Position numbers and translations under genes: made by a program. A stretch of 48,119 bases of DNA from a virus (taxonomy: Duplodnaviria > Heunggongvirae > Uroviricota > Caudoviricetes), in IMG/VR virus record IMGVR_UViG_643348551_000006, positions 1-48,119 of that record; one strand, given 5' to 3'. Under the pieces are notes generated by a model. It saw only the letters and a list, made by a program, of their open reading frames with translations, had not been told where the DNA came from and made no database searches. How positions within the stretch are numbered: the stretch's first letter is position 1; the number at the start of each line of letters is the position of its first letter. Shown here piece by piece: positions 30,366 to 32,341 of this stretch.

Positions 30366-30628
30366 GATGTATTTCCAGGTTTTGCTTAATATATGAATAA
30401 TCTCAATGTCATGGTGTTATTTACAACACCAGAATGATGCATCACCGACCCTGCCAGGAAATATAAAATCTCCGCCGAAAATGCACCATTCTGCTGCCGT
30501 AAAAAAATCAGCACTGCGGCTACACCCGACCCCAAATCATAGCCAGAGAACAGAATGTTTTTAACAATCTACCCCCACGTAATAAAAAAATACGTCAGTG
30601 CCGTCACTATAAGGCGTATTTCAAATGT

Positions 30629-30704
30629 TGGAGCGAGCAGCGGGAATCGAACCCGCATCATCAGCTTGGAAGGCTGATGCTCTATCCGGATGAGCTAGTG
30701 ACGG
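30629..30704 (-). tRNA. tRNA-like element with intact D, anticodon (UCC) and T arms and encoded CCA, but a non-pairing 5' acceptor strand (likely 5'-truncated tRNA remnant)
   Basis: Minus strand CCGTCAC-TA-GCTC-ATCCGGATA-GAGC-A-TCAGC-CTTCCAA-GCTGA-TGAT-GCGGG-TTCGATT-CCCGC-TGCTCGC-T-CCA; only 2 of 7 acceptor pairs can form. Confidence 0.5.
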
Positions 30705-30835
30705 TTTTATTGCCACATCCGTAACAACAGTCGACAGGAATAATATACATTCAGAATCAGCCGCCTTAGCTAATTGTGCAACCATCTGCTCTTTGCAAGT
30801 GCACTTAACGTCCTGCGCCACTTTTCAGGCATAAA

Positions 30836-30900
30836 AAAACCCGCTCAGTGGCGGGATCTTTTGATAAAAACGACAAAGGCACCATTAAGGTGCCTTTTAC
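30836..30900 (-). terminator. Tandem terminator hairpins (minus strand)
   Basis: GGCACC-TTAAT-GGTGCC then TTTGTCGTTTTT, then CCCGCCACTGAGCGGG then TTTTTTT. The second hairpin is a near-identical copy of the terminator at 31553..31585. Confidence 0.5.
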
Positions 30901-30974
30901 ACAGGGGCAGCAGGCTTGTCATCACCTCATCGCTACTCCTGGCTTCCTGTTCGGAAGTCTCACAAGTCCCATCA

Positions 30975-31010
30975 GGGTACAGCGACAGTATCAGCCAACA
31001 CACTATGTGT
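30975..31010 (-). promoter_or_regulatory. Sigma70-like promoter candidate (TTGACA - 17 nt - GATACT) about 110 nt upstream of the tandem terminators
   Basis: Perfect -35 hexamer and 4/6 -10 on the minus strand; function unverified. Confidence 0.35.
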
Positions 31011-31014
31011 GTCA

Positions 31015-31050
31015 ATATAAATTCATATCGAATTCGATAATCGTTTTCGA
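31015..31050. repeat. Cluster of nested perfect palindromes (TATCGAATTCGATA / TCGATAATCG-TTTT-CGATTATCGA / TATCGATA) just downstream of the MazF-like stop
   Basis: Read directly from the sequence; candidate operator or hairpin. Confidence 0.6.
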
Positions 31051-31452
31051 TTATCGATACAGATAAGCCATCCCTATCCCGTGCAATACCGCCCGTTTAA
31101 TATTCTCAAACTCATCTTCCGCAATCATAGGAACAATATAATTTCGTCCCTCCCAGGTTCTGGTTTTTATGCGATCCAGTCGGCTCAATGAAACCGTCAT
31201 CAACATGTCACATTTTACCCAGCAAGTAATATGCTCATTACCAGGTATGGGGTTTTCTGATAACTCATGATGGCAATCTCTGCGAGGGAGCGGTTCAGTA
31301 GTGCTTATTGGTACCACTGTTACCAATTGATTGTTGTGCCTGTTTCTGGACACGACCACCACTGGCCTGATCTTGACTATTTCCGGAACAACCATTCCCC
31401 GAAAATCACACATTAAAACAGAACGAACAGACGGCTGATACTTTAATACCAT
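31051..31452 (-). CDS. MazF/PemK-family endoribonuclease-like protein (toxin homologue) with no adjacent antitoxin gene; start at MVLKYQPS
   Basis: MVLKYQPSVRSVLMCDFRG...KIRPVVVVS...LVTVVPISTT...CWVKCDMLMTVSLSRLD aligns with MazF (MVSRYVPDMGDLIWVDFDP...HRPAVVLS...) and Kid/PemK (TRPVLIVT...LPVVVPVTSG...VVRCDQPRTID). The track ORF extends 26 codons further upstream. Confidence 0.7.
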   Translation of the reverse strand: MVLKYQPSVRSVLMCDFRGMVVPEIVKIRPVVVVSRNRHNNQLVTVVPISTTEPLPRRDCHHELSENPIPGNEHITCWVKCDMLMTVSLSRLDRIKTRTWEGRNYIVPMIAEDEFENIKRAVLHGIGMAYLYR

Positions 31453-31552
31453 AAATCTCTTTGCCTGATAATGACGACTTGTGAACTCCACTACAAACAA
31501 AATGATTCTGCTGAACAGGCAGTTTCGCACTATACATTATAACCTGTTAAGC

Positions 31553-31585
31553 CAACAAAAAAACCCGCTCGGCGGCGGGATTTGC
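31553..31585 (-). terminator. tR'-like rho-independent terminator about 65 nt downstream of the putative Q stop
   Basis: Minus strand CCCGCCGCCGAGCGGG followed by TTTTTTTG. Confidence 0.5.
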
Positions 31586-31632
31586 TTACTTTGCCATCGA
31601 GTACAAAATCGGCAAAATATCAGATTTGCACG

Positions 31633-31661
31633 AAATATATGCCTTTTAATCTACTTTTGCA
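31633..31661 (-). promoter_or_regulatory. PR'-like late promoter candidate overlapping the 3' end of the putative Q gene (TTGCAA - 17 nt - TATATT)
   Basis: Good sigma70 hexamers with 17-nt spacer; with the terminator it would give a ~70-nt leader RNA, analogous to lambda PR'-6S-tR'. Confidence 0.4.
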
Positions 31662-32341
31662 ACACTTTGCTTTGAAAATGCCGTCTTTTGTTCTGAACGT
31701 GTTCTCATCACAAACAATAAAGCCTCACTATCCAGCCGGTGGAAAATGTGTTTCATTGCAACCCAGTGACCAGTAAATGTTTTGGACCAGTTTTTAGTTG
31801 TCACTCCCGCCAGTAATGCCAGTTCCTGATATTCATAAGTTTCACGCCCAGCTAGCTCACTCTTCACATCCTGTGCCGCCAGCCAGATTAATTTTTTCAG
31901 GCGCTCCCGTGTTTTCTCCGCAATTTTTCTGGTACCAGATTGCGCGTTAAATTCATTCCACGCCCACTGTGTTATCGCAATCTGGTGTTCCCAGCAAATG
32001 CTGCCGCTGTAACACCACAGCAACCAGGCTTTATGGTGTTCTTCAAGAGACAGAACCGCCCGTCGCCATGATGATGTCGAAAACTCAACCTGACTTACCA
32101 GAGGAATTGACGTCTTCTTTGCCAGCGATTGTTTCCCCGGGATTGGTGGATTATCCAGCGTGATCATTTTTCCGGTCACTTCATCGCGGTACCGGATTTT
32201 TTTACGCCTGTAACGCCCGGTATCAAACATGGCATTCTCCTGCCAGGCTTCAAGCTGACCTTTTGTTGCTCCACTCAAATCGGCGGTGGCGATAATGAGC
32301 TGTTCACGCACAAACTGTAAATACTGGTTATTCATGCGCAC
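31646..32341 (-). CDS. Putative late-gene antiterminator Q (assigned by position between rusA and the PR'/tR'-like elements)
   Basis: 231 aa; no motif recognised by eye. Call rests on the conserved lambdoid order rusA - Q - PR' - lysis. Confidence 0.45.
   Translation of the reverse strand: MRMNNQYLQFVREQLIIATADLSGATKGQLEAWQENAMFDTGRYRRKKIRYRDEVTGKMITLDNPPIPGKQSLAKKTSIPLVSQVEFSTSSWRRAVLSLEEHHKAWLLWCYSGSICWEHQIAITQWAWNEFNAQSGTRKIAEKTRERLKKLIWLAAQDVKSELAGRETYEYQELALLAGVTTKNWSKTFTGHWVAMKHIFHRLDSEALLFVMRTRSEQKTAFSKQSVAKVD

Follow-up and report, generated by a model that had tools for sequence, protein, structure and literature searches.

A gene for a MazF/PemK-fold protein of the YifN-like clade (pemK) and, immediately downstream, a structured RNA gene with its own promoter lie side by side in the late region of a lambdoid prophage, and their homologues occur together in bacteria of several phyla and in viral contigs. 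The window, that is, the whole stretch of DNA analysed, comprises 48,119 nucleotides (nt) of a Caudoviricetes virus (IMG/VR record IMGVR_UViG_643348551_000006, positions 1 to 48,119), and its sequence is 100% identical to a prophage of Escherichia coli SE11. We read the pair as a two-gene protein-RNA module, carried as a prophage moron, in which the RNA is most likely the antitoxin and works in a type III-like manner; we put the probability of this reading at roughly 57%. It is built on the fold of the protein, the conservation of its residues, the structure and promoter of the RNA, and the linkage of the two genes. The module is an ancient mobile unit of prophages, chromosomes and other mobile-element contexts in several phyla.

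A MazF/PemK-fold gene and its RNA neighbour

The protein of 133 amino acids matches Pfam PF02452 (PemK_toxin; E 6.5e-14, 52.5 bits against a cut-off of 23.1), as do 82 of 82 homologues, and also phrog_15698 (E 1.7e-47), a phrog family of unknown function. AlphaFold2, given the family alignment, modelled the protein with a pLDDT (predicted local distance difference test) of 91.7 and a pTM (predicted template modelling score) of 0.85. All of the 50 best Protein Data Bank matches listed by Foldseek were MazF-family endoribonuclease toxins, nearly all named MazF, at a probability of 1.0, and the top MazF matches had target-normalised template modelling scores of 0.64–0.82. The protein is hence predicted to adopt the MazF/Kid fold, an SH3-like beta-barrel with a C-terminal helix. 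At the sequence level, the profile similarity to solved MazF proteins is marginal (E 0.03), the NCBIfam MazF equivalog gives 13.7 bits against a cut-off of 120, and the Joint Genome Institute labels relatives ‘YifN (PemK superfamily)’. None of 39 homologues varies at E24, R29 or S50, which HMMER aligns with E24, R29 and T52 of E. coli MazF, so nothing in the sequence would point to an inactivated enzyme. The same 39 homologues back the ATG start through a conserved N-terminus, M-x-L-K-(Y/F)-Q-P. An earlier annotation made by a model from the sequence of the window (the first-pass annotation) had proposed a MazF/PemK-fold homologue; the profile and structure-prediction searches that it had suggested as a check bear this out, placing the 133-residue protein in the MazF family with the catalytic-equivalent residues kept.

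The same annotation had found no MazE/PemI-like antitoxin on either side of the gene, and this holds more widely. No open reading frame (ORF) of a protein antitoxin of the MazE/PemI, AbrB, ribbon-helix-helix (RHH) or Phd type lies beside the toxin gene on either strand of the window, and no conserved protein partner occurs at the E. coli, Enterobacter, Klebsiella, Xenorhabdus, Pseudomonas, Alteromonas and Geobacter loci examined. Two candidates were considered and rejected: a small protein antitoxin, for which the ORF lists of the window and three distant loci hold nothing conserved, and a 16-codon ORF inside the E. coli RNA, which is missing in Pseudomonas. Despite its PGAP name in E. coli SE11, ‘type II toxin-antitoxin system PemK/MazF family toxin’, the gene lacks the adjacent protein antitoxin gene of a type II system. 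PADLOC found no match to known defence systems. Across the pemK stop codon there is a perfect 10-bp palindrome (TCGATAATCG, tttt loop, CGATTATCGA; 31034..31057), which has no T-run after it and is no obvious terminator; it is specific to E. coli and does not occur in the Enterobacter, Klebsiella or Xenorhabdus modules. The E. coli region that corresponds to the putative −10 element of the toxin gene in other genera is degenerate.

The RNA gene was spotted by aligning the flanks of enterobacterial loci from four genera, as a block that is more conserved than the sequence around it. About 70 nt separate the gene from the pemK stop codon, and a terminator hairpin (30897..30875) followed by a U-run closes it. 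The RNA has a minimum free energy of −43.9 kcal/mol (z −4.4 against shuffles), and the window copy scores 141 bits with the covariance model. In the alignment of the 80-locus survey described below, compensatory changes on both sides were found in 30 of 31 base pairs, and 97.3% of the cells form pairs, compared with 74.7% in shuffles and 33–54% with the partners slid, figures that are somewhat inflated because the alignment was fitted to the covariance model. An independent consensus fold made with MAFFT and RNAalifold has the same helices. Two elements, the single-stranded motif CUUGUGAGACU and the apical motif GAUGACAAGC, hardly vary between phyla, from E. coli to Geobacter. In Rfam 15, 30863..30980 of the window has no match at E ≤ 1, and for 11 loci of other taxa the element has none at E ≤ 0.1. 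Tandem Repeats Finder reported nothing in 30000..32000, and the RNA is single-copy.

Immediately before the RNA lies the best promoter-like site of the region in a consensus scan (30987..31015). Across about 65 loci drawn from many phyla, almost every copy of the RNA is preceded by a sigma-70 promoter with this −35/−10 geometry, set at a constant distance from the RNA's conserved 5′ end, GUUCCCG. Where the first-pass annotation had noted palindromes and terminators downstream of the toxin gene, the region that it marked, to 30600, does contain the partner, but the conserved RNA and its promoter (30863..31015) went unrecognised. Two further ideas about the RNA were dropped. CUUGU and ACAAG could form a pseudoknot in most clades, though not in Alteromonas or Vibrio, and as both segments are invariant, covariation says nothing about it. 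The invariant motifs might mimic or target ribosomal RNA (rRNA), but their best match there, 16S 302–311 (GAUGACCAGC, one mismatch), is about what chance would give by a rough calculation.

Linkage and genomic contexts of the pair

Two surveys addressed how often the RNA accompanies the toxin. The genome survey used one genome per species and a protein-based scan, which gave 361 relatives, of which 80 loci were kept; the viral survey comprised 79 loci gathered by protein similarity, with 128 relatives in viral contigs. A match at E < 0.01 was counted. The first covariance model was built from 13 enterobacterial sequences only, and a broader model was used for the viral loci. With the enterobacterial model, the RNA was found beside the homologous toxin in 68 of the 80 species-representative loci, in 67 of these on the same strand and directly downstream, with representatives in Alpha-, Beta-, Gamma- and Deltaproteobacteria, Nitrospirae, Acidobacteria and a bacterium of the candidate phyla radiation. 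Scores beside homologous toxins reached 66 bits in Pseudomonas, 40 bits in Alteromonas and 36 bits in Geobacter. The broader model placed the RNA beside the toxin in 68 of the 79 viral loci and recovered it in a Vibrio prophage at 32.9 bits. The median gap from toxin stop to RNA start is 59 nt.

Within E. coli, the toxin gene is present in 24 of 5,426 complete genomes, directly after Q in all those examined or listed, and the RNA element is present in 37: in all 24 of the toxin-bearing genomes and in 13 without toxin, in which the RNA promoter has been deleted or replaced. The first-pass annotation had called the gene solitary, which is not so, since the structured RNA gene adjoins it in every toxin-bearing E. 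coli genome. The E. coli toxin always comes with the RNA, but the RNA may come alone, which is the asymmetry expected of an antitoxin. In IMG/VR, pemK lies immediately upstream in 15 of 18 informative loci with the RNA motif, and the element does not occur in 50,697 phage records.

The settings of the pair are varied. Prophage homologues in Enterobacter, Klebsiella and Xenorhabdus (65–80% identity) likewise lie behind the late regulator and ahead of the lysis genes. The late regulators there belong to PF03589 and PF06530, unrelated antiterminator families, and at one Enterobacter locus the upstream genes are Mu-type GemA and Mor and not an antiterminator. The slot between Q and the lysis genes, for which a survey of related prophages had been suggested, is thus kept behind unrelated regulators. 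In Pseudomonas and Geobacter the setting is chromosomal. In Alteromonas (L009–L013) the module lies amid ParDE and Phd/ParE pairs, small unrelated genes and an IS110 transposase gene, which we suspect to be a cassette array; the RNA gene is inverted there (4444..4555 in L009 and L010), convergent with the toxin gene, and has its own promoter (TTTACA, 17 nt, TACAAT). Some relatives adjoin an integrase gene. In a PM2-like Vibrio prophage (Vinavirales; L015, 12088..13393) and in the viral contig L188, the toxin gene comes directly after a LexA/CI-like (S24-type) repressor gene in the same orientation and is itself followed by the RNA, which suggests expression during lysogeny at these two loci. 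Finally, a Pseudomonas paralogue clade (L098, L099, L104, L107, L110, L113–L115, L118, L122 and L126) has a diverged RNA upstream, at about 2365..2492, with a terminator ending about 10 nt before the toxin start codon, an order like that of ToxIN. Some of these loci have an additional RNA copy downstream on the opposite strand, and the order RNA, terminator, toxin is also seen in a few viral contigs. The variable placement of the RNA (downstream, convergent or upstream) together with its own promoter argues for a trans-acting RNA product.

The late-operon setting in E. coli prophages

On the minus strand, the prophage genes run in the order DUF968 protein, RusA, Q, pemK, a transfer RNA (tRNA) remnant, a TerB-like protein, two holins and an M15 endolysin. 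With Q, promoter-like and terminator-like sites (consensus matches) and lysis genes downstream, the surroundings are those of a lambdoid late control region, and the promoter, leader and terminator that the first-pass annotation had placed after Q are in position (Table 1).

Table 1. Coordinates of the pair and of the late control region in the window
Feature	Position	Strand	Basis or remark
Late antiterminator Q gene, 231 amino acids	31646..32341	-	PF06323 Phage_antiter_Q, E 7e-95; PGAP: ‘bacteriophage antitermination protein Q’
pR′-like late promoter overlapping Q end: TTGCAA, 17 nt, TATATT	31634..31662	-	Consensus scan, 9/12 matches
Late leader, about 70 nt; tR′-like hairpin 31579..31564 then T7; first 25-nt repeat copy	31555..31630	-	Terminator scan
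Spacer with perfect TATAAT (31541..31536), no good −35	31502..31554	-	Only in module-bearing E. coli prophages; kept in pemK-less L020
PemK/MazF-fold toxin gene, YifN-like clade, 133 amino acids + stop	31051..31452	-	PF02452, phrog_15698, AlphaFold2/Foldseek
Presence/absence segment, 494 bp: pemK 5′ untranslated region (50 nt), coding sequence, 43 nt 3′ including −35 of RNA promoter	31008..31501	-	BLAST against L020
Sigma-70 promoter of small RNA: TTGACA, 17 nt, GATACT, 6 nt to conserved 5′ G	30987..31015	-	10/12 matches
Structured small-RNA gene, about 118 nt, four stem-loops, own terminator	30863..30980	-	Fold, covariance model, covariation
Second tR′-like hairpin 30855..30840 + T7; second 25-nt repeat copy	30833..30857	-	Part of late leader, not of toxin module

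The pR′-like promoter is about 90% identical in sequence in Q-bearing phages without pemK, and the leader has a sub-threshold resemblance to the Rfam families isrJ (21.3 bits) and isrK (19.5 bits). It is a leader of the same kind as the short pR′-tR′ transcripts lambda 6S RNA, StxS and Salmonella IsrK/IsrJ. Unlike a toxin partner, it is Q's own and is common to phages without pemK; as a ToxI-like antitoxin it was rejected, given that it is such an isrJ/isrK-like pR′ leader, is shared with pemK-less phages and has no tandem repeats. The suggestion in the first-pass annotation that an RNA might neutralise the toxin was right in spirit, a conserved RNA being present downstream, but the ToxIN-like layout that it saw upstream is an ordinary Q leader.

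The two hairpins that the same annotation had described as nearly identical (31557–31581 and 30833–30857) do share 23 of 25 bases, and their similarity ends at those 25 nt. It had gone on to propose that a moron was inserted by recombination at these tR′-like sequences. The pemK-less relative L020 (STEC17-183) matches 32400..31502 and 31007..30805 of the window and keeps both hairpins, lacking exactly 31501..31008, a clean 494-bp indel with a 3-nt CAT overlap (microhomology) at its junction. The second hairpin is also found in L018 and, behind a different antiterminator gene without pemK, in L019. Because pemK-less relatives keep both hairpins, recombination at the duplicated tR′ is unsupported, and the empty site in L020 and the hairpin behind another antiterminator in L019 refute the duplicated terminators as an insertion scar. 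In L016 and L017, which have the same Q and no pemK, homology to the window extends to 31555–31558 and is followed by tRNA genes.

Several other features lie near the pair. At 30629..30705 (minus strand) there is a dead chimeric tRNA, the 5′ part of an Arg gene fused to the 3′ part of a Gly gene over a shared 34-nt stretch, as seen by reference to the EC71 and A30 prophages, which have tRNA-Arg, tRNA-Thr and tRNA-Gly at the same place; it gives a partial Rfam tRNA match (30640..30697, 48.5 bits) and no ARAGORN call, and its acceptor ends are unpaired. Between this remnant and the TerB-like gene there are more terminator-like hairpins on both strands (30289..30361), one of which (30343..30361) resembles the repeated tR′-type hairpin more loosely (72%). 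Upstream of the DUF968-RusA-Q genes, at 34197..34352 (minus strand), lies a type I toxin gene of the Hok/Gef family (hokD in SE11), so the element may carry two RNA-controlled toxins.

Possible action of the RNA and relation to known systems

In the mechanism that we favour, 31501..30863 (minus strand) would be a two-gene protein-RNA module inserted in the lambdoid late leader, its first gene encoding a MazF/PemK-fold endoribonuclease of the YifN-like clade and its second an independently transcribed structured RNA. The RNA would be made constitutively from its own promoter and would bind the RNase directly through the invariant exposed motifs CUUGUGAGACU and GAUGACAAGC, keeping it inactive, and the toxin would be freed upon a fall in RNA supply or a surge in toxin synthesis. 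As the module lies after tR′, transcription of the toxin gene should be low in the lysogen, while tR′ terminates, and should rise after Q antitermination; the degenerate −10 of the E. coli toxin gene would raise its dependence on read-through. Binding of the type III kind is favoured since the RNA motifs are conserved where the untranslated regions (UTRs) are unrelated, which fits recognition by a conserved protein. The pair probably serves as an accessory moron, in phage exclusion or element stabilisation; its place directly behind a repressor gene, seen in a Vibrio prophage and in a viral contig, favours this over a dedicated lytic effector.

Two type III toxins, ToxN and AbiQ, resemble Kid/MazF in fold. 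Type III systems (ToxIN, AbiQ/antiQ, CptIN, TenpIN) likewise combine a Kid/MazF-related RNase toxin with an adjacent non-coding RNA, are often found on mobile elements and act in phage exclusion, and the Pseudomonas paralogue clade shares their order of RNA, terminator and toxin. In contrast to them, the toxin here is a true member of PF02452 and not of the ToxN/AbiQ family, and its neutralisation is put forward by us as an inference.

Several points weigh against an RNA antitoxin of this kind. Instead of tandem 34–45-nt repeats, the RNA consists of one copy of about 118 nt with four hairpins, and it usually lies downstream with its own promoter, whereas every characterised type III system has it upstream. 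With a linked non-coding RNA but neither a repeat array nor a promoter, RNA, terminator and toxin operon, the module would be type III-like in its working and would belong to none of the known type III families. That the protein is an RNase and toxic, that the RNA neutralises it by binding to it directly, and what the pair does biologically are all matters that we infer, and the fitted alignment somewhat flatters the covariation, as said above. In each survey 11–12 loci have no RNA match at E < 0.01, most of those in the genome survey belonging to the Pseudomonas paralogue clade with its diverged upstream copy. In the viral contigs L203 (2736..3011) and L177 (2454..2999), with about 39–40% identity, a small ORF of the HTH-XRE or RHH-like type runs up to or into the beginning of the toxin gene, and the RNA match is weak or shortened; in some such distant sub-clades a protein may be the partner, alone or alongside the RNA. 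No RNA copy was detected beside yifN of E. coli K-12 (b3777; L030, 3013..3461), which is of the same clade and shares its motifs (PPEMIK-R-VVV, VVPLSTT and W-K-D); unlike the window gene, it is a frameshifted pseudogene, alone between ppiC and rep. Lastly, a match between RNA loop and toxin 5′ UTR in Enterobacter and Klebsiella, detailed below, may be a lineage-specific antisense layer or chance.

An alternative that we consider unlikely, though worth keeping in mind, is that the two form a ribonucleoprotein in which the RNA is a dedicated substrate, cofactor or guide and not an antidote; the MazF-like protein could, for example, mature or carry the RNA, and the complex could act on a conserved cellular or phage RNA. 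Two near-invariant single-stranded motifs, shared from E. coli to Geobacter, fit recognition by a conserved partner, and 13 E. coli genomes have retained the RNA after loss of the toxin. However, those RNA-only loci, their promoter deleted or replaced, look like decaying remnants, the PF02452 members characterised so far are toxins, and a search for mimicry of or complementarity to E. coli rRNA by the motifs returned chance-level matches.

A type I-like arrangement, in which the small RNA (sRNA) would pair with the initiation region of the toxin mRNA and block translation or trigger decay, has a rather low probability in our view. Its best case is Enterobacter L022, in which the apical loop GGUGAUGACAA is perfectly complementary to −25..−14 of the toxin 5′ UTR (12 bp, z 4.9); the same loop matches over 11 bp in Klebsiella L028 (z 3.0), and in E. 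coli it shrinks to 9 bp with two G:U pairs, while the linker matches −33..−24 over 10 bp. Xenorhabdus and the distant clades lack the loop match, although the loop itself is invariant. Across 63 distinct loci, however, complementarity to the own UTR equals that of shuffled RNA (mean z 0.05, two of 63 above z 2), with z 1.6 for the window and −0.5 for Xenorhabdus, and it is the primary sequence of the RNA that is conserved, not that of the UTRs. The complementarity to the toxin mRNA that marks a type I system is hence significant only in Enterobacter and Klebsiella.

Slightly less probable still is an unneutralised late-gene effector that degrades host RNA in lytic growth after Q antitermination, the RNA being irrelevant. 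The first-pass annotation had offered such an effector without antitoxin as one option, and the position of the gene directly behind pR′-tR′, its degenerate −10 in E. coli and the conservation of the post-regulator slot in four genera would suit it. Against this, the same pair occurs at non-phage chromosomal loci, beside integrases and, in Alteromonas, amid toxin-antitoxin pairs and insertion sequence elements; behind the CI/LexA-like repressor genes of the Vibrio prophage and the viral contig it would be expressed in lysogens; and the toxin is never without the RNA in E. coli. That the RNA-like element is common lambdoid late-leader DNA or a hitch-hiking sRNA deserves almost no credence: it does lie amid leader terminators and is present in the pemK-less L019 and L020, but it is missing from all the phage records searched and confined to 37 E. 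coli genomes, 24 of them with pemK, and it accompanies the homologous toxin at non-phage loci of distant phyla.

Other known systems offer partial parallels to the module. Type II MazEF, PemIK and ChpBIK share the toxin fold and the Glu/Arg/Thr(Ser) positions, whereas the window has no gene of the MazE/PemI type and its sequence similarity to them is marginal. The solitary MazF-mx of Myxococcus xanthus is neutralised by the transcription factor MrpC; it too is a MazF homologue without an adjacent antitoxin gene and with an unconventional partner, but that partner is a protein encoded elsewhere and not an adjacent RNA. MazF-mx is mentioned in PMC2701414. A survey of the MazF family dropped toxins that lack an upstream antitoxin ORF (PMC3879964). 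According to a preprint (bioRxiv 10.1101/2025.04.15.648962), AbiF of a Clostridioides difficile prophage is neutralised by direct binding of a single structured RNA, RCd22. That system also pairs a prophage toxic protein with a non-repetitive structured RNA that has two conserved motifs and acts in cis or in trans, but the protein is a Cas13-like member of Abi_2/AbiD/F, and its RNA, which bears no relation to the one described here, is part of the leader ahead of the gene. We found no functional study of yifN and no description of the RNA or of its pairing with the toxin in the literature covered, which included two non-coding RNA surveys from the Breaker laboratory and left out most subscription journals.

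A broader proposal, to which we commit ourselves only tentatively, is that YifN-like ‘solo’ toxins are one half of a broad, unrecognised family of protein-RNA toxin-antitoxin systems with a single-copy sRNA antitoxin of about 120 nt that has its own promoter. The RNA might then be the first RNA partner of a true PF02452 toxin and an evolutionary bridge between type II MazEF and type III ToxIN. In enterobacterial lambdoid prophages, where the module is set behind the late antiterminator and before the lysis genes, Q antitermination could then tip the toxin-to-RNA ratio upon induction.

If the favoured reading of an RNA antitoxin is true, a conserved RNA partner would explain how a widespread clade of MazF-like RNases is tolerated, and the automatic ‘type II’ annotation would be corrected. 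The RNA would be a new family, and neutralisation by RNA would extend from ToxN-type proteins to the classical MazF family. The pair would then be a compact candidate module for anti-phage defence or stabilisation in prophages of E. coli (including Shiga toxin-producing strains), Klebsiella, Enterobacter, Pseudomonas, Neisseria and Haemophilus.

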